Origin: Dictyostelium discoideum
Lineage: Eukaryota
Assembly: GCA_000004695.1 (NCBI GenBank)
Contig: CM000150.2
Location: 3,680,001 to 3,744,000, forward strand
Reading direction: 5' to 3'
DNA: 64,000 nt
Below the pieces are notes generated by a model. It was not told the DNA's origin and searched no databases. It saw only the letters and a program-made list of their open reading frames with translations. A program made the translations under genes and the position numbers. Positions 33,353-54,306 of the stretch are shown in pieces (the first letter of the stretch is position 1; the number at the start of each line of letters is the position of its first letter).

Positions 33353-33355
33353 TTA

Positions 33356-33449
<94 letters not shown>

Positions 33450-33494
33450 TCACAGTCACTATCATTAATATTATTATTATTATCATCATGATCA

Positions 33495-33565
<71 letters not shown>

Positions 33566-34698
33566 TTTATTTTTTTTTTTATTTTTTTTATCTTTATCAT
33601 ATATAATATTATTTATATCATATTTTTTTAATAAGTGTTTTAAATATTTTGATAAATAATCAAATGTTGGTCTTTGTGAAGGATTTTTACTCCAACAACG
33701 TGTAACAATATCAGATATATCAGTATCTTTAAAAATTTCTTGATCTAAAGAAGGTCTTTCATTTTTAAGTACTAATTCTCTTATTCTCCAGTGTGGCTCC
33801 GAATAATATGGTATTCTTTCTGAAAATAATTCATAACAGAGCATGCCAAACGAGTAAATATCAGTTGATTTAGTGTAAGAACCTTGTGATAGAATTTCAT
33901 TACTCATATATGCAACAGTACCTCTTCTAGTTTGAAGATTATATCTTTCATTGGTTTCTTTTGAAAATGGTATTAAAAAATAAAATAAAATAAATTAGAA
34001 TCATCAAACTAAAAATTAATAAATAATAAATAAACATACCTTTACTTGTACCGAAATCTGATACCTTTGCACAAACTAAAGATTTTGGATTCAAAGAAGT
34101 AATTAATATATTCTCTGGTTTTAAATCTCTATGAGTAATACCATTTCTGTGAAGATATGCACATGCTTTTGAAATATCAATTAAAATTCTATAAAAAAAA
34201 AAAAAGAGTTAATATTATTTCAAATCTTTTTTTAAAAAAAAAAAAAAAAAAAAACTTACCTAATTTTTTGAATAATTGTTATTTTATACTTATTTTCATG
34301 AATATATTTACTTAAACAACCTTTTGAACAATAATCTGTTACAATACCATGAATACCAGAAAAAATAAATCTACCCACATATAATAGTATATTTGGATGT
34401 CTTAATCTTTCTAAAAGTGAAATTTCTTTTTCAATTTCATCATGATCAACATATTCATTTTTAAGTAATTTAACTGCAACTGGTGATGATCTCCAAATAC
34501 CACGATAAACTATACCAAATGTACCTTCTGAAATATAGTTTTTAATTATAATTTCATTAAAATCTATTATATTAGTTAATTCACTCTCTAAACGAAGGAA
34601 AACAAATGTTGACCATGATTGCTTTACATCCAATGTTTCAAATCGAACTATTACTTTTTCATTATACTATATATTATAGTTAGTATAATAATAATAAT

Positions 34699-34764
<66 letters not shown>

Positions 34765-37700
34765 TAATTACCTTTGTAGTTGAAAATAAAGTAACTGATA
34801 ATGAAATTGAAGTTTCAACATTTGGTTTTAATTCAATAGATTGAAAAGGTGAACTTGTTATTGAACTATCATCACCTTCTGGGAATAAAAATAATGCATA
34901 TAATGGTTCACTTAACTTATTTTTAAAAGTGATAGTATCATGACAAACTTCACCAAGATCGGATTTTCTACCATTCATTCCAAAATCACAAATATATGGT
35001 GATACTGATACAGGTAAATCTGGATCATTACAATGTTGGAATATTGTATCTGCAATTAAAACATGTGTTTGAGTATTGGTTCTATATTTACCACTTTGTC
35101 CATTTCTATTTTTATAAGTTTTTAAATAATGTTCTAATGGTATTTCATTGGTAACAGGGTCAAGTAAAATATCAATAATATTTAAAGGATTTTCAATAAA
35201 ATCACCATGAGCTAATGATGGAACTAAATGAGGACTTGGTATTTTACTTTTTTTATACTCGAAAAATTCTTGATCAAAAGTATTTCTTTCAAATTGTCTA
35301 ACAAATAATTCACCCTCTGCTTCAATTTTAATATTTCCACCTCGTATAATATTAATATAATCTTCAACATCATCTTCATTTAATTCTGCACCATCACTTG
35401 AATCATCATATTCATCACTATAATCTTCAAAAAATGGTTCATTATTATTTATAATTGGTTTAATTTCTAAATTTTCCATTTCTAATGTTACATTTGTTTG
35501 TAATATTGCTCCTGCTGCTGTTGTTGTTGTTGTTGTTGTTGTTTCTACTGTGGTTGGTTCTAAATTATTATTTTCTGATTGTGTTTGAATATCAGAATTT
35601 CTATTTACTGTTATTGATATATGATTTGATGATGATTGTTCTTGATTTGAATTTATAATTAATGGTGTTGATGGTACTGGTGATTTATTATTTGATGGTT
35701 TCTTTGAATATAGTTCAACACCAAAAACAGCTATTTCAAGTCTTCTTCTTTTTTTATGTTTATAATATCTGGCACCAAAGAATACAATTAATATGGATAA
35801 TAAAACAAGTACTGTAACACAAATTGGAACAATTATTGGTAATAGATTTATTTTTTCAACTGGTATTGGATATTCAATTACAAGTGATGAATAAATTGCC
35901 ATTGATGTTAAGTATGTATTACCTCTTGTTGCAAATGAAATATTTATATTTTCCAATGAGTTGATATTATCGAAATTGAATGTTAAATTTTTGAAAATTG
36001 GTGCTGAATTACTCTCTAATGGTTCCAATAAGAATACTGGTTGATTTTCAATATAAATTGATAATGGTGTTGGTTGATCATCAATTGGTTGATGTATAAA
36101 AAATAATTGAATTTGATAATACTTTGTTTCACTATCAATTCTTGTTGTTATAGTTACTAATTCATTTGAATTAATTGATGTTATACCATTTAAAAATAAT
36201 TCATTAAGGTCATTTGATATATTTAATTTTGGTAAATTTGTTATATATTTTATATTATTTGAAATTGTACAATTATTGCTATTATCATTACTACTAATAC
36301 TACAACCTTTTTTGAATGAATTACCATCAACTGAAATTATTCCATTTTCAGTTGAGTTTTCCATTGACCAACCTGAATAAAATGAATAATTACTAAATAT
36401 TGTAATCTTTGGAAAATTGATAATATACATTATTTCTGAATCTCCTACATTCTTTAATTTCACTGTTACTTTTAAATTTACTGAACCATCATTTTTAAAT
36501 GTTAATGGAAATTTACACTCTTTATTTACACTCTCTGATATAGCAGATGATGTTATTGTTTCATTATCTGATTCGAGTTCACAAGTAATACGACTAATTA
36601 CTGGTGATATTATTACAAGTTTTACTATTAAATCTAATTTTCCACCAACTGGTATTTGATATTGTGAAGTTGGAAAAATGGAATCTACTAGAATAAATTC
36701 ATCAACATTTAAAAGTTCATAGAGGTATGGCACAATCGAAGAACCATAGATTTGATTATTTTGAAGTTGAAAATCATCGATATAAAAGCTTGAGTTTTTA
36801 ATTATGACAGCTGATGATTTAATACCATTATCACCTAATGATGGTGTTGTTGATGAACCAAAAAATGAATCATAAATATCCAACCTTTTAACTTGACCTG
36901 TCAATTTAAAATTATTAACACCAATAATATTTTTTAAAACTAAACCACTTCCTTTTAAATTTACAATGATTTTAGAAGAAATAGTTGAATCTTTAATTGT
37001 AAAAAAAGTATTCTTTAATTCTTCATCACTATTAACTATTAAAAAGTAATCTACTGGATTAATTGAAATTGGATTTACTAAGTTTTTACTAAAATCGATT
37101 GGCTCTTGTGAAAGACTTGGAACAACTATTGAATTAATATCGCATGGAGCGAAGCAATCTTTATCGAAACCTGTAACATTCTCTCTTGATATGAAATTAA
37201 AATTGTATAAAATTTTTTGGCCATTGAATATATCATTAGTTGAGAATATGTTTGGCGAAAGTGAATAGATACCATTGCCTTCATGTCCATAATCCATAAA
37301 TGCTGGTGATGTAGGAAATTCATTTGGTAAAACTAATGAGAAATAATTATTTGATGATTCTATATATTCTGTACCATACTGAGCAATCATACTTGAACCT
37401 GCTGTGCCCACTATTAAATTACCTGATATATTAACATTTGATTGAAAAAATACTAAAGATGATCTCGACGAACCAGTGTTTCCAATGATTACACTATTCT
37501 TTATTGTTACACTATTTGAAAACTCTATATATAGTGAGTTTCTAAATCTTTGATTTTTACCAATTATTATATCTGTCACATTATTTGGATTATCTGATGA
37601 GAAGGTTAGCTTTGTATCATCATATTCTTTATTTGAAGTTTTACCAATTGAATCAAGTAAGTAGTTTTCAATATGTAGTTTAGTATCACCTGTTATATAA

Positions 37701-38689
37701 ATTGATGATTTAGTTCTAGTTGATATTCCTCCAAACTTTAAAGAACCTGAATCATTGAAAAATAATTTTATATTTAGATCTGTTGTTGGTATTGTTAAAT
37801 CTTGCATCTCTAGTTTATTTTTGTTATAGGTAAATCTTGAAGTTCTAACATTTGGAAATGAGTCGCTAACTATAGATACATTGAATCCATTGAATGGATC
37901 TAATGTTGATATATCATTTACCTCTAGTACATTATCTTCTATCGGTTTAGCTGAATACAATATTCTTTGAGATCCAATAAGAGATATGGAACCACCTAAA
38001 CTAAGGATACCTGGGAGAAACCCAAAAGGATCAATTTTGATTATAGTTGAAGAAAGGTCAACAAATTGTAGCACGCAATTATTACAATGAAAATTACCAC
38101 CAGGCAAAACGATTATACCTCCTAAGGTAAGTGTTTGTTGTGATCCAGCTGTGAAACTACCTTCTATACATAGGATATTTATATATGATGGATGAATTGA
38201 CAAAAGAGGGTCTAAAGTCATGTTAGATCCTATAAATTAAGAGAAAAGAAATTGAATGATGTTAATAATTTATTTAGGTTTTAAAGAGTTATAGTATTTA
38301 AATAATATAATACCTTTTGTAATTTTAATATTTGCTTTTAAAAAAGGGCTTCCCGGGAAATTGTCTATGGAAAATTCGTTTGAATTTTTATTTTTTAATG
38401 CACTGTCGCATATATCGGGATAATATAATTCATGTGGCTCTACATTGACACTGTTTGCTTTTGTTGGTATTTTTGAAAAATTTTCAAACTTATTTATTCG
38501 ATATAAGTTATAGTAACCATCGGGTGTATAAACAAAACTACCTGTTTAATAAACAAAAAAAAAAAAAAAAAATTTTGTTGGTTACTGTTAAAGTATAAAT
38601 AAAATAATAAATTTGATCATACCTATAGAAAAAGTATTATTTATTGAAAATATTATTAATATTAATAAAATATATAAAATATAATTCAT
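33353..38689 (-). CDS. gdt-like receptor protein kinase (paralog A): signal peptide, about 1150-aa extracellular domain, one TM, cytoplasmic Ser/Thr-kinase-like domain; join(38689..38623,38541..38314,38229..34772,34666..34260,34188..34040,33957..33353)
   Basis: Exon 1 [22 protein letters not shown] (signal peptide), donor GTATGA. Exon 2, donor GTATTA. Exon 3 is the giant extracellular ORF with [25 protein letters not shown] + KHKKRRR; donor GTAATT at 34771. Exons 4-6 carry kinase subdomains I-XI ([40 protein letters not shown]) and a poly-Asn tail. All phases check. The architecture matches the Dictyostelium growth-differentiation-transition (gdt) family, but this assignment is from memory of that family. 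Confidence 0.7.
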
Positions 38690-39483: not shown

Positions 39484-42400
39484 ATGAAAAATCTATATTC
39501 ATTTGTAGTTTTGGCGTTATTAGTGTTGTTTATGGGAGGTATGCATTGGTTTATAATATTCTTTGATTATTTTTATTAATAATTTTGTAATTTTTTAATT
39601 TTAATTTTTTAATATTTTCTTTAAAACAGATTCTAATTCTCAAGATCTTTATACCTTTGATTGGAATGCCCCAAGAGTGAATATAAATGGCCATCCTCAT
39701 TTTAAAGTAAATTATTATCCAGGAACTACAAATTCAAATTATAAAGGTGATTTTTATCCGGATTTAGAGTCAAATCCAACAATTAAGAAATATACGTTCT
39801 CTAATAACTGTACTTTAACTGCTTCAACAGATTATAGTACAGCAGGTTTGTTTACCACACCTATGAACACAGTTGATAATCCTTTTGGAACTATTACAGA
39901 TATCAACACAACCCTTATTGTCCCCTTTGGAGTTACTGTAACTTTTTCAGGAAGAGTTGAATTGATTCCATCTTTGTTAATTAAAGGTAGAGTTGTTCTT
40001 GAGCCAAGTGTTGCTAATTCTTATTATTTTGTTATGAAAACAATTATTTTCCCAACTGGTGTATTTGAATCAATTCCAATAGCAACTTCCAACCATACTG
40101 TATTTTTACAAGGTGCATACAGCACATCACCTTTTATATGGGATCCACTTTATACTTCTTCTTTTTTATGTCTTGGAGGTACTGTTTCTCTAAAAGGGTT
40201 TAATAGTGAATCGGTATGGACTGGTAGAAATAGTTCTTATTCATCATATGGTGGATCTTTCTTAAGAACACCCTTTATCTATAACAATACAGGAGCACCA
40301 ATTTTTAGAATGGCATCCACTGGAAGAGATTCAAGTAATAATAATAATTATGTGATAAACAATTATTATACTGGGTACAGAGCAGGGGGTTCAAATGGTT
40401 TTATATCTGATAGTGCATCATTCAATGGTGGAGGATATCTTCTTGTAAACCCATGGAATAAAAATCTTTGGATTAGTGGTTCTAAATTATCGTCGATGGT
40501 ATTCACATTAAACTCGAATGTTAATATCCAAAATTGTGTATTATTTGATTTAGGTCACACAAAAGGTGATATTTTGGATGATAACATTCTTGACTCAAAT
40601 AATATGGTAACCCACACCGGGACAAATTTACCAGATAGATACCCTATTACACTCCTACACAATACTAAAGCAGTTACCATCAGTAATAATTTCTTTCATC
40701 ATGGATTTACTTTTGGTGGAACTCAAGCCTCTATTCCAAGATCATTTATTGGTGTAAAACGTTCTTTTGGCACTATCTCGGGTAATGCGTTTGCATTGAA
40801 ATCTAGTATAAGTGGTATTTCTTTATTACATGGTACTGAACAATTTGAAATTAGTTATAATGCCTTCTTATCCGTATATTCTGATACAACAGATATATCA
40901 TCATATAGAGCATATCCTGATATAGATTATTTAAATGGTGGTATCATTACAACTTCACCTTACTCAACTTATGAAGGAAATGCATTTGAAGGTAATTTTA
41001 AAGGTGGTGCTTTTCAAGTAATCCCAATTCAAAGTAGATCATCTGCTACAGGTTTATCATCTGATATTTTAATTGGTGCATATGTTGGTTTAACACAAGA
41101 TAATACAGCTGATTATAAAACAAATAATGTTTGGAATAATGTTGAATATAAAAATAATTTTTTTGCTGGCGAAGCAGAATTTCGTTTTAGATATTCATTT
41201 ACAAGTCTACCAACAATTAAAGTAAATATGAAGTTTGGATGGTATATTGGTCAAAGAGTATCACAAAGACTTGGAACGACTGGTAATCAAGCAAACATTG
41301 AACTTTGCTATGATTCGCCATATATTGCAAGCACTCTATCTATTGGTGATAATTTCTATATTACTACTTCCAATTCACATAATGGAAAGTATAATGCTGT
41401 TTCAATGGTTAATTCGCTTGCAACTTCAACATATAAATACTTTGCAGAAACATTTACTTCAAATTACCTTTCAATCAAAGATTCCAAGTTTTCCCATTTT
41501 GCAGCATCACCCTCAACGTTCCTTAAAAATTATGCAACTCAATTATATTTTTCAAATGTGAATGGAACAAAGCTCAATATTGGATTTGCAATAAATTCAT
41601 TCCAACCTCTTTATAATTTATCACCAATTAGTACTGATGTTTCTTCAAACAGAATCAACGTATCATTTATTCCAAATTTCGACTTTTCATACTCTGATGG
41701 TCAAAAAGTTGATTATATTGTTGATGGAAATGTTCAATCTACATTAAGTTTTTCGTTGGATCCAAACAAAGCATTGAAATACAATGAAGTTCTATTTCCA
41801 AAAGCAAATGGTGTTTATTCAGTTTTGATTTCATCAGTTCAAAACATTCCAACATTTATCTCTCCATATGGGCCATATTTTGCAAACTCATACATAATAG
41901 ACTCGACTGCTATAAACTTTTATCTTGGTATCGATTTAACTTCAGATATTAGTTCATCAGCTACTGCTCTTTCAATTTTTGGTAATTCATGGACAAAATG
42001 TGGTTGGGTTAGCTCAATTTGTAAAACAACAGGCAAATTCAGTAAGGTATCTCCGACACCATCTACAGTAACTGAATCAGTTACTGGAGCGGTCAGAAGC
42101 ATAGCAAATGAAGTATCAATGCTAACTTCATATTTAGCTAATGATGATACATTAGGAATTAAAAGTTCAGTTAACATCACATTACCATCAGGTTCATCAT
42201 TCAAGTTTTTCATTTATTCATATAATGCGGATTACACTGGTGCTAATATCGTAAACTCCCTTCCATTATTCACAATCAAAATTAATGGTAAATATCAAGA
42301 ACCATATTCAAGACCTTCTTCAACCTACCAACAATACAAAAAGTATGGTCCATTCTTTTATAATACTGACTCAACTGATACCAAATTAATTATTGAATGG

Positions 42401-42655
42401 GCATCAGATAATATAAAATACTCAATACCAATTTGTGGTATTGAAATTTTCTCAAATATTTCATCACCTTTAGTTATTCCTACTCCAACACCATCATCAG
42501 GTGGTGCAGTCGAAACATCAAGTAAATCAACAACTTCAAGTGGTTCAACCGAAACCAATTACGATGAAGGCTTAAATGCAGCTTCATCTGTTTTATCTTC
42601 AAAAACATTATTTTATTTAATCTTTTTTTATTTTATTATTTATTTTTTTCTCTAA
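39484..42655 (+). CDS. gdt-like extracellular-domain paralog B, kinase-less, probably GPI-anchored; join(39484..39538,39630..42655)
   Basis: Exon 1 MKNLYSFVVLALLVLFMG (signal peptide), donor GTATGC (39539). A 91-nt intron ends AAACAG (39628..39629). The 1009-aa exon 2 (ORF residues 17-992) is paralogous to the extracellular parts of the genes at 33353-38689 and 43386-47938 (for example FLCLGGTVSLKG vs [12 protein letters not shown]). It ends with a Ser-rich stretch and a hydrophobic C-terminal tail (...SKTLFYLIFFYFIIYFFL*) typical of a GPI signal. No TM-plus-kinase follows. Confidence 0.65.
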
Positions 42656-43385: not shown

Positions 43386-47938
<4,553 letters not shown>

Positions 47939-48341
47939 TATTTTAAAATTTATAAATGTGGTATAACAAAAACACACATCCAAAAGGTTTGTTAGGATTT
48001 GTAGGATTTGATGGAAAAAAAAAAAAAAAAAAAAAAATGATAAAAAAAAAGAAAAAAAAAGAAAAAAAAAAATTAAAAAAAAAAATTGAAAAAAAAGAAA
48101 AAAAAAAAAATCAATTTTTTTAGAATCTTTGTGATTGAATCCTGAAAAAAAAAAAAAAATAAAAAAAAAAAAATGTGATTAAATCAAAATAAAAAAAAAA
48201 AAATTAAAAATAAAATTAACAAAAAAAAAAAAAAAAAAATTTAATTTGTGTGATAAAATATTTATGTCGAAATTTTTTTTGGTTGTGAAATTACTAACAA
48301 AAAGGATATTTTTTTTTTTTTTTTTTATTTTTTAATAAAAA

Positions 48342-48940
48342 TAGATTTTATTTTTATTTTGATTGAATCCAATTTGATAAATCTTGATTAAAAGCTTTGA
48401 ACCAATTTGAATTAATTGTAACCATTTCTAAATCTTGTTTAATTGAACGATCAGCAATTGGAACTGGATGATCTTTGAAAAAGTTGACGACTTCATTGTA
48501 TTGAGAATCATCCATTTTAGAGGTGAGACAACTACCAATGATACGACCAAACAAAGGAGAGTTATTAAAGGTTTCATCGATTTGATTAAAGTTTTTGGTA
48601 AAGTAAGCCCAAGCGAATTGACGAACACGATTTGGAAGGGTAAAGAAAACCATATAACTATCTTGACTTCTAACGGATGGAGATAAAGCGAAATTGAGGG
48701 CTTTTTCAACCAATTCCTCTTTTGGAGCCAAAGCAAGTACCAAAAGGTAAGAATTCTTTTCAGCAACTAAAGAAGATTTAAGATATTGATCAATGATGAT
48801 TTGTTGATCAGCTTCACCACCATTCTTTACGATTGTAGCAAGTACTGTAGAACGAATATCTGATGGTAAACTTGAAGAGTCTGCTTTGAAAGCTTCGAAT
48901 CTTTTCTTACATTCAGCAACGATCTGAACTAATTTGACTC
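48342..48940 (-). pseudogene. inverted, truncated duplicate of the 3' end (last 195 codons plus 12 nt of 3' UTR) of the M1 aminopeptidase gene at 51170-54083
   Basis: The minus strand 48940..48342 is about 97% identical at nucleotide level to plus strand 53505..54100. The encoded 129-aa tail differs at 3 residues (F/L, D/N, N/K). Similarity breaks off sharply on both sides, and an in-frame TAG lies 20 nt upstream of the homology. There is no start codon and no upstream exons. Confidence 0.75.
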
Positions 48941-52229: not shown

Positions 52230-54083
52230 TAATCATATTCTTCTTAATAATAATATGTTAATTCCTTTAATAATATATAATGATACCATTACCAATCACC
52301 ATCACCATAGGACTTCTCCTTTGGAGCTATGGAAAACTGGGGTTTAATTACTTATCGTGAATCAATTTTATTAACATCAGATAAAACTACTCTTCGTACT
52401 AAACAAAGAATTGCTAATGTAATTGGTCATGAATTAGCACATCAATGGTTTGGTAATTTAGTAACAATGGAATGGTGGAGTCAATTATGGTTAAATGAAG
52501 GTTTTGCAACATTTATGGGATATTTATCAACTCATCATTTATTCCCAGAATGGGAAGTTTGGAATGATTTCTCTGATTGTTATAGAAATGGTGCACTTCG
52601 TTTAGATGCTTTAGAGAATTCACATGCAATTGAAGTACCAGTACGTCTTTCGTCTCAAATTTCAGAAATTTTTGATGCCATTTCTTATAACAAAGGTTCA
52701 TGTGTAATTCAAATGTTAGAGAGTCGTTTCGGTGAATCATTTAGAAAAGGTCTTCATCATTATTTGGATACTCATTCCTATAAGAATACCAATACCGATG
52801 ATCTTTGGGCTTCAATTTCATTGATTAGTGGTGTTGATGTTAAATCATTCATTGATTCATTCACAAAGTATCCAGGTTATCCAGTAGTTTCATTCACTCC
52901 AACTTCAACTGAAGGTACCTTTGAATTATCTCAAAAGAAATTTAGATTACAAGGTTCTGAGAAATCTGATGATCCAATTTGGAATTGTTTCATTAGATTC
53001 CAAACTGGTAATGCTGGTCAACATGAATTCATCTTGGAGAAGAAATCCGATACCGTAACAATTCCAAACTTTAAAAATGGTGATTGGATTAAACCAAACT
53101 ATGGTCAAACTGGTTATTTCCGTATTGCCTACTCACCTGAAACTATCAAAGCATTGGTTCCAAAGATTAAATCAATGGAAATTCCAACTCCAGATCGTTT
53201 AGGTTTATTATCAGATGTTTTCAATCTTTGCAAGGCACACACTTCTTCCATCTCTGCCTATATGGATTTAGTTTTGGCTTTTGAAGATGAAAAGGAAAGT
53301 AATGTTTGGGATTTCATTATCGATAGTCTTGGTTCTATTCAAACTTTAATTGAAGATCAACCATACTCAAGTAGATTCAATGAAATCTTTGTTCAACTTT
53401 TGAAACCACTTTCAAAACGTTTAGGTTTCGAGCCAACCAAAGGTGAACCATCTTCAGATACCTTGTTAAGAGATAAAGTAAACACTAAATTGGGTATGTT
53501 GGGTGATGCTGATATCGTTGCTGAATGTAAGAAAAGATTCGAAGCTTTCAAAGCAGACTCTTCAAGTTTACCATCAGATATTCGTTCTACAGTACTTGCT
53601 ACAATCGTAAAGAATGGTGGTGAAGCTGATCAACAAATCATCATTGATCAATATCTTAAATCTTCTTTAGTCGCTGAAAAGAATTCTTACCTTTTGGTAC
53701 TTGCTTTGGCTCCAAAAGAGGAATTGGTTGAAAAAGCCCTCAATTTCGCTTTATCTCCATCCGTTAGAAGTCAAGATAGTTATATGGTTTTCTTTACCCT
53801 CCCAAATCGTGTTCGTCAATTCGCTTGGGCTTACCTCACCAAAAACTTTAATCAAATCAACGAAACATTTAAAAACTCTCCTTTGTTTGGTCGTATCATT
53901 GGTAGTTGTCTCACCTCTAAAATGGATGATTCTCAATACAATGAAGTCGTCAACTTTTTCAAAGATCATCCAGTTCCAATTGCTGATCGTTCAATTAAAC
54001 AAGATTTAGAAATGGTTACAATTAATTCAAATTGGTTCAAAGCTTTTAATCAAGATTTATCAAATTGGATTCAATCAAAATAA
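51170..54083 (+). CDS. M1-family zinc aminopeptidase, puromycin-sensitive aminopeptidase (NPEPPS)-like; join(51170..51828,51922..52153,52311..54083)
   Basis: Donors GTAAGT (51829) and GTACGT (52154). Acceptors AAAAG (51920..51921) and CCATAG (52309..52310). Phases 2 and 0. Exon junctions restore FEQTPKMSTYIVAFIVGEFDHIE and HIAIP|DFSFGAMENWGLITYRE (GAMEN exopeptidase motif). HELAHQWFGNLVTMEWWSQLWLNEGFA is the HEXXH(X)18E zinc site. The protein is colinear with human NPEPPS to the C-terminus. The N-terminus MKKINLISIIIFIISLVYFNF is hydrophobic. Confidence 0.85.
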
Positions 54084-54306
54084 AAATAAAATCTCTTACA
54101 ATGAAAGATCTTTGTTTTAATAATTGATAGTGATAAAAAAAAATGAGACGAAAACTAAAATAAACATCAAATTATTGTTTTCCTTTTTAAAACACAAATT
54201 TTATTTTTTTAAATTTATTGTTTTGGTTAAAAAAAAAATTGCTTTTTTTTTTTGTTTTTGCGTTCATCCAGAAGTATAGATTTATTTTTGGTAACATATG
54301 AATGTA

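Follow-up and report, generated by a model that had tools for sequence, protein, structure and literature searches.

A short tract shared by the neighbouring receptor kinase genes gdt2 and gdt8 of Dictyostelium discoideum as a probable product of interlocus gene conversion

The window analysed here, a stretch of 64,000 nucleotides (nt) of the Dictyostelium discoideum genome (GenBank assembly GCA_000004695.1, contig CM000150.2, positions 3,680,001 to 3,744,000 of the forward strand; 78% A+T), contains two neighbouring genes, gdt2 and gdt8, which share a near-identical patch of about 100 nt. gdt2 has been studied experimentally as a regulator of the growth-to-differentiation switch, and we know of no ligand for the ectodomain that the GDT receptors have in common. 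Both genes encode a large ectodomain, one transmembrane helix, and a C-terminal kinase domain. The latter is recognized in both by the Pfam models PF07714 and PF00069, in gdt2 within the C-terminal exons and in gdt8 with PF07714 at 3.5e-46, while a hydrophobic N-terminus and a single transmembrane segment were judged by inspection only. The ectodomain of gdt2 and gdt8 is homologous to that of every family member recovered, and no model for it exists in Pfam or NCBIfam.

The spliced N-termini of the two genes are identical to the published Gdt2 (DDB0220631) and Gdt8 (DDB0220636) over the ca. 450 residues printed for each in the supplement of PMC1420674, and their kinase motifs agree with the corresponding rows of the kinome alignment given there; the first gene is therefore gdt2 and the second gdt8, of D. 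discoideum AX4 type. The original prediction had described them as a tandem pair. They are indeed neighbours in the same orientation, but 9.7 kb apart and separated by an opposite-strand gene, here termed 'mid' (Table 1). The 'mid' product, for which Pfam and NCBIfam likewise hold no model, bears a weak likeness to the gdt ectodomain (28% over 227 amino acids, E=8e-4) and ends in a hydrophobic tail.

The patch lies in the C-terminal ectodomain module, with 58 residues between the end of its peptide and the transmembrane helix in gdt2 and 97 in gdt8. It had been placed at 36023-36125 and 45718-45820, a pairing that is 6 nt out of register and leaves 66 of 103 positions different. A repeat search gave the true ungapped offset of 9701, and at this register the near-identity holds, with mismatches at 36031, 36090, and 36096 and exact runs of 58 nt (36032-36089), 25 nt, and 22 nt. 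The encoded peptide, YYQIQLFF(I/T)H(Q/L), had been given correctly, whereas the second patch, thought to be an identical 30-mer, is an exact match over 22 nt and agrees at 29 of 31 positions over 36170-36200. The peak is local: in 30-codon windows, nucleotide identity between gdt2 and gdt8 reaches 0.96 at 36124 compared with 0.40-0.78 elsewhere, and in the codon alignment it is 62-78% beside the extended tract. The best-segment score of 127 was not approached in 10,000 permutations of the match and mismatch states (at most 32.5; P<1e-4), and an exact 57-mer of the patch (45733-45789 in gdt8) occurs at two places only within the window, with none expected. At the protein level the genes have diverged further than the 50-60% identity assumed at first. 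Outside the tract they share 35% over all aligned large-exon columns, 41% in the ectodomain, 20% in the transmembrane and cytoplasmic part, and 29% in the kinase N-lobe; the module holding the patch, at 59%, is the sole part that high.

Table 1. Features of the gdt2/gdt8 region, in window coordinates
Feature	Coordinates	Strand	Description
gdt2	33353..38689	-	receptor-type TKL kinase; first gene of the original prediction
gdt2, large exon	~34770-38221	-	
gdt2, kinase exons	33353-34633	-	
gdt8	43386..47938	-	architecture as gdt2; large exon ~44818-47505; second gene of the original prediction
'mid' gene	39677..42655	+	between gdt2 and gdt8; context only, outside the tract
Core tract, gdt2	36024..36121	-	putative converted tract; 3/98 mismatches vs gdt8
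Core tract, gdt8	45725..45822	-	partner of 36024-36121, offset 9701
Extended tract, gdt2	36007..36208	-	elevated identity with patchy matches; 86% over 202 nt
Extended tract, gdt8	45708..45909	-	partner of 36007-36208
Exact 22-mer, gdt2	36170..36191	-	partner 45871-45892; candidate later micro-conversion, AX4 lineage

To separate nucleotide identity from protein conservation, the two large exons were aligned by protein, and only identical, degenerate amino acids were scored for codon identity. Outside the tract, 105 codons at conserved residues are identical between gdt2 and gdt8, compared with 103.5 expected from codon usage, which means that synonymous sites of this pair are saturated. The core has 28 degenerate codons, and every one of them is identical where 18 identities would be expected, with an all-match probability of 1.2e-6. 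The longest run of identical codons, 29, has a P of about 1e-5 in a codon-usage-aware simulation with per-residue match probabilities. Synonymous differences were further compared with expectations from per-residue background rates in the rest of each gene pair. By this measure, the 34-codon core of the AX4 pair shows 2 synonymous codon differences instead of 12.1 (P=5e-4), and the extended tract, 60 codons from LF(L/S)NGITSIN to FLLEP, shows 5 instead of 19.4 (P=1e-4). Synonymous divergence in the patch thus lies far below the gene-wide level; this check, put forward with the original prediction, speaks for conversion.

Related genomes provided two sets of loci for comparison. The first consists of the syntenic locus of D. 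cf. discoideum (L002), those of two wild D. discoideum isolates (L003 and L005), and that of D. dimigraforme (L004); the D. dimigraforme comparisons cover gdt8, and the gdt2 orthologues compared are those of AX4, the wild isolates, and D. cf. discoideum. The second is a sister cluster in D. discoideum (L001), D. cf. discoideum (L007), and D. firmibasis (L006). The comparison assemblies of L002 to L007 come from PMC12745789. A protein homologue search with the patch module returned a single fragment (P0001), which led to L001, and a search with the cytoplasmic region of gdt2 returned no match. L001 carries a cassette of gdt6 (A), a kinase-less degraded copy (B), a 'mid' homologue, and gdt4 (C), with the identities of gdt6 and gdt4 confirmed against the kinome supplement (PMC1420674). 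The 'mid' gene keeps its position and orientation in this cluster, at 68% nucleotide identity over 2.9 kb (L001 11248-14403), and the whole gdt-mid-gdt cassette was duplicated as one unit. Homologues of both clusters lie on one D. cf. discoideum contig; these are therefore paralogous clusters within one genome.

The same deficit of synonymous change is present in the core of the D. cf. discoideum gdt2-gdt8 pair (4 differences, 12.5 expected). Between orthologues, these codons undergo synonymous replacement at close to the background rate: gdt8 of AX4 and D. dimigraforme differ at 4-5 (7.5 expected), gdt4 of D. discoideum and D. firmibasis at 7 (8.4 expected), gdt6 of the latter two species at 8 (7.3 expected), and other gdt8 orthologues at 2-3 (1.3-2.2 expected). 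This also holds between the clusters, with 7 differences for gdt2-gdt4 (7.1 expected) and 7 for gdt8-gdt6 (9.1 expected). The original prediction had offered very strong purifying selection at the nucleotide level as an alternative to conversion, which these background rates contradict. Since the codons of the block change between orthologues and between clusters and are identical only in neighbours in some lineages, the pattern argues for gene conversion rather than nucleotide selection or codon bias.

Relationships among the four genes were examined in 30-codon windows. The N-terminal ectodomain, the transmembrane segment, and the cytoplasmic region all give the topology (gdt2,gdt4)(gdt8,gdt6). 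A long cytoplasmic linker is common to gdt2 and gdt4 and missing from gdt8 and gdt6, and in the published kinase tree, too, Gdt2 and Gdt4 form a pair (PMC1420674 supplement). Judged by this backbone, gdt2 and gdt8 are shown to be old duplicates, whose split predates the duplication that yielded the gdt6-B-mid'-gdt4 cluster. Across 36289-35954 the topology is instead (gdt2,gdt8)(gdt6,gdt4), with 48 informative sites vs 3 and 1. Mismatches in the 98-nt core number 3 for gdt2-gdt8, 25 for gdt2-gdt4, and 23 for gdt8-gdt6 (Fisher P=7e-6), the opposite of the distance order permitted by the backbone tree. Cluster-specific residues, DDQPTP vs DIExSL, are common to neighbours and not to the genes that are alike elsewhere. 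The four-taxon topology was rejected as a stand-alone proof, because conversion in the gdt6/gdt4 cluster alone gives the same unrooted topology. A within-cluster topology is also seen at 37650-37400 and 37190-36300, mainly from a gdt6-gdt4 identity of 81-94%; gdt2-gdt8 identity at these sites is 0.62-0.77, not clearly above that of gdt2-gdt4.

We conclude that the patch is very probably a short interlocus (non-allelic) gene-conversion tract between the paralogues gdt2 and gdt8. The ectopic conversion envisaged in the original prediction is supported by the synonymous test, by the control comparisons, and by the distances. The core, ca. 97% identical with patchy matches over ca. 200 nt, synonymous sites included, lies in the most conserved membrane-proximal β-strand block of the ectodomain. 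In the mechanism that we propose, a break or stalled fork in one copy would be repaired with the paralogue as template, and the heteroduplex would be seeded in the stretch kept most alike by protein-level constraint. The tract might stay short because the flanking identity is too low for longer pairing, or because selection would remove any longer tract that overwrites paralogue-specific residues.

The tract is common to AX4, the two wild D. discoideum isolates, D. cf. discoideum, and, for gdt8, D. dimigraforme. In the tract, AX4 gdt2 is about equally far from its AX4 paralogue gdt8 (93% identity) and from D. dimigraforme gdt8 (89%). Together with a closer match between orthologues than between paralogues in the tract (see below), this indicates that the main event is old; it probably predates the divergence of the D. 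discoideum complex and, as far as these alignments date it, falls close to the D. dimigraforme split or earlier. At the variable tract residues, the family consensus is T..Q, and after the event a Q->L change was fixed in gdt8 of all species and a T->I change in gdt2.

Smaller transfers may have followed. With D. cf. discoideum as outgroup to polarize changes in gdt8, 7 of 9 lineage-specific substitutions in the tract are toward the gdt2 state, compared with 21 of 84 elsewhere (Fisher P=0.003). At 45874-45875, AX4 gdt8 has ATT (Ile), as does gdt2; the gdt8 codon is ACC in D. cf. discoideum and the two wild isolates, and ACA (Thr) in D. dimigraforme. The ACC->ATT replacement in AX4 thus comprises two adjacent derived changes to the paralogue state, and it creates the second near-identical stretch. 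In isolate ACTFIR, gdt8 carries a CCTATTGGAG->CTTATTGGAA change, while its close relative ACTFIW retains the gdt8 state. These observations are suggestive, and only suggestive, of small later transfers in single lineages, mostly from gdt2 to gdt8. The gdt2 tract shows zero changes between AX4 and D. cf. discoideum, which fits gdt2 as the usual donor.

Several observations weigh against conversion between gdt2 and gdt8, or against its continuation. The switch in topology could, by itself, stem from conversion between gdt6 and gdt4, so that the case for gdt2 and gdt8 rests on distances and synonymous sites. The signature of GC-biased conversion is absent, with no GC enrichment in the tract (23-25% vs 27%). 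Two orthologue comparisons show a mild synonymous deficit, namely gdt2 of AX4 vs D. cf. discoideum (0 vs 4.3 expected, P=0.013) and gdt8 of AX4 vs D. dimigraforme in the extended tract (7 vs 13.3 expected, P=0.045), and these leave room for a weak extra constraint. The non-synonymous I/T and Q/L differences stay fixed in the tract, Q/L in every gdt8 orthologue; repeated full-length conversion would erase them. As regards ongoing transfer, C->T and G->A, which make up the most frequent class of mutation in this AT-rich genome, account for most changes toward the paralogue, and the polarizing tree varies along gdt8. In addition, orthologues from AX4, the wild isolates, and D. cf. discoideum are closer to each other in the tract (gdt2 100%, gdt8 97-99%) than the paralogues are (91-94%). 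Other figures for the tract, 98-100% for orthologues and 93-97% for paralogues (98-100% and 93% over alignment columns 345-446), show the same relation. Because of this last relation in particular, ongoing conversion between gdt2 and gdt8 is suggested, not shown.

Three other explanations of the patch were weighed. Protein-level purifying selection together with an extreme A/T codon bias might suffice without any sequence transfer, as no part of the ectodomain is better conserved across the whole family than the peptide block, and half of its codons are two-fold degenerate with preferred A/T-ending forms, giving match probabilities of 0.7-0.9 for Y, Q, D, N, and H. The bias was, however, modelled explicitly in the codon test, where 28 of 28 identities stand against 18 expected (P=1.2e-6), and the rare codons TTC, TTG, and GTA are also identical in both genes. 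The same residues evolve at the saturated codon rate in gdt2-gdt4 (7 vs 7.1) and gdt8-gdt6 (7 vs 9.1), and the DDQPTP and DIExSL residues follow the neighbours, not the genes alike elsewhere. We regard this account as very unlikely. Comparably improbable is nucleotide-level selection on an element embedded in gdt2 and gdt8, for example a small-RNA target, a signal for splicing or translation, or a structured segment of the mRNA. It draws on the two mild orthologue deficits and on the unusually stable predicted fold of the 202-nt gdt2 tract, whose z of -4.2 to -4.4 is the lowest of 49 exon windows (mean z 0.07, sd 1.08). Yet this fold is specific to gdt2: z is -1.05 for gdt8 of AX4, -0.6 to +0.65 for its orthologues, and between -2.1 and +0.2 for gdt4 and gdt6, the predicted structures differ, and the strong gdt2 stem pairs tract ends that gdt8 does not share. 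A search of Rfam gave noise as its sole match (E=0.86, 18 bits vs a threshold of 39 bits), and synonymous change in the gdt8 orthologue core runs at background (2-3 vs 1.3-2.2; 4-5 vs 7.5). The stable fold of the gdt2 tract may be due to chance.

An artefact or rearrangement, i.e., an assembly collapse or chimera, the same mobile insertion in both genes, or a recent partial duplication, is the least probable of all and in our view can hardly be maintained. The region is repeat-rich, and a truncated copy of gdt2, whose breakpoints fall at the tract or close to it, exists in two wild isolates. Against this, the patch is in frame and residue-for-residue homologous to the same block of every family member, occurs just twice in the window, and is present in four independent long-read assemblies; the window repeat search revealed no flanking repeats or target-site features.

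Interlocus conversion as the origin of the gdt2/gdt8 tract has a parallel in the sister cluster. In the core of gdt6 and gdt4, D. discoideum shows 2 synonymous differences where 10.8 are expected and D. cf. discoideum none where 11.4 are expected, nor any over 60 codons (19.2 expected), while D. firmibasis, with 9 vs 10.6 expected, shows no homogenization. In D. cf. discoideum, gdt6, B, and gdt4 share 179 nt at 100% identity, whereas their D. discoideum orthologues match them at 95-96%; here, paralogues within one genome are closer than orthologues between genomes. The homogenized stretch measures at least 400 nt for gdt6-gdt4 and ca. 1.3 kb, at 91%, for B-gdt4. The same module has undergone homogenization in gdt6, B, and gdt4 as well, independently and at a later date. 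The two cases agree in protein module and β-strand block, in the gdt-mid-gdt layout, and in the synonymous signature. Unlike the gdt2/gdt8 tract, the gdt6/B/gdt4 tract is longer and more recent; it reaches 100% identity in D. cf. discoideum, and D. firmibasis lacks it.

Short-tract interlocus conversion is classically known from the primate γ-globin genes HBG1 and HBG2, from the red and green opsins, and from many yeast and Drosophila duplicates. The gdt2/gdt8 patch resembles such cases as a discrete tract of near-identity in diverged neighbours of the same orientation, with low synonymous divergence and a phylogenetic switch at its borders, and its length falls in the usual range of tens to a few hundred bases. 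It differs from them in being old and shared across (cryptic) species, with the remaining synonymous sites saturated, in its lack of GC bias, and in the opposite-strand gene between donor and acceptor. None of the papers covered by a literature search reports gene conversion within the gdt family. The finding adds a fresh multi-genome example of a process already well known; the type of feature is not new. It is a clean case in an AT-rich genome, where codon bias might have taken the blame.

The patch block is the most conserved ectodomain stretch in every family member recovered, and the motif Q(I/F)QL..PID..LS(I/V)(Y/F)I.N.P..LEP is present in all homologues recovered. A structure model of the 181-residue module is of low confidence, with a predicted local distance difference test (pLDDT) score of 55 overall and 64-80 for residues 80-178. 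In this model, the block forms three consecutive β-strands (residues 101-110, 120-124, and 127-132; pLDDT 64-80) within an all-β module. Foldseek returned weak matches (template-modelling scores of 0.33-0.43) to jelly-roll or lectin-like folds, among them an ANXUR malectin-like ectodomain, a haemagglutinin head, and carbohydrate-binding modules. We tentatively regard the predicted module as a β-sandwich.

Homogenization of the block might be favoured and not merely tolerated, if neighbouring Gdt receptors require an identical block in order to pair with each other or with a common partner, possibly the distantly gdt-like, kinase-less 'mid' product; independent, repeated conversion of the module in both clusters would then be a genomic signature of receptor hetero-oligomerization. 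We consider this idea speculative and rather unlikely. In a weaker variant, the block may be a recombination-prone site, since it is here that the truncated gdt2 copy of the wild isolates terminates. For the Dictyostelium surface-receptor loci tgrB1/tgrC1, gene conversion has been invoked as a shaping force alongside duplication and local recombination, and the outcome described there is diversity for allorecognition (PMC12745789). The tgr and gdt genes are alike as clustered surface-receptor families in the same genomes, but among the gdt genes a conserved block is homogenized while the N-terminal ectodomain is divergent. As to function, we know of no link between gdt genes and allorecognition.

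Concerted evolution between neighbours affects part of the ectodomain, and trees based on the membrane-proximal module will therefore mislead. The result also implies that the module is interchangeable in function within each of the pairs gdt2/gdt8 and gdt6/gdt4, whereas the N-terminal ectodomain is free to diverge and is thus more likely the seat of ligand specificity. These points have practical value for gdt phylogenies and for the dissection of the Gdt ectodomain.

The truncated gdt2 copy mentioned above is an extra copy located upstream of gdt8 in ACTFIR and ACTFIW (L003 10233-11676 and L005 11722-13169). It ends inside the patch, at the window equivalent of 36043/36040, carries an internal deletion corresponding to 36385-36201 between AATTATT microhomologies, and has ACA, the gdt8 state, at a position inside the patch where gdt2 has ATA.

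Further structural variation affects gdt8. About 265 codons of the middle ectodomain are absent from AX4 gdt8 (window 45990-46110) with the frame preserved, and are retained in gdt8 of D. cf. discoideum (L002 10494-13709) and the wild isolates (L003 14390-17620, L005 16095-19319) as well as in gdt2, gdt4, and gdt6. The preserved frame and the presence of these codons in orthologues and paralogues identify an in-frame deletion specific to the AX4 lineage. Between L003 and L005, the gdt8 large exon differs at 92 of 3198 sites, mostly in the first ca. 260 ectodomain alignment columns and with many non-synonymous changes; at many of these sites one isolate is identical to AX4 and the other is not. 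The pattern points to a high level of polymorphism, or to recombination, in the N-terminal gdt8 ectodomain. Between its conserved module and transmembrane helix, the gene also contains a tandem repeat of 12 nt that encodes (T-E/Q-T-P)n, and it has a long AAT/ATT run (poly-Asn) within the ectodomain (45474-45593 and 46309-46504), both of which differ in length among orthologues. Just upstream of gdt8, the 3' end of an M1 aminopeptidase gene is present as an inverted 584-nt copy of 98.5% identity (48340-48923 vs 53514-54097), and gene fragments with ERAP1_C only occur in the corresponding region of related genomes as well.

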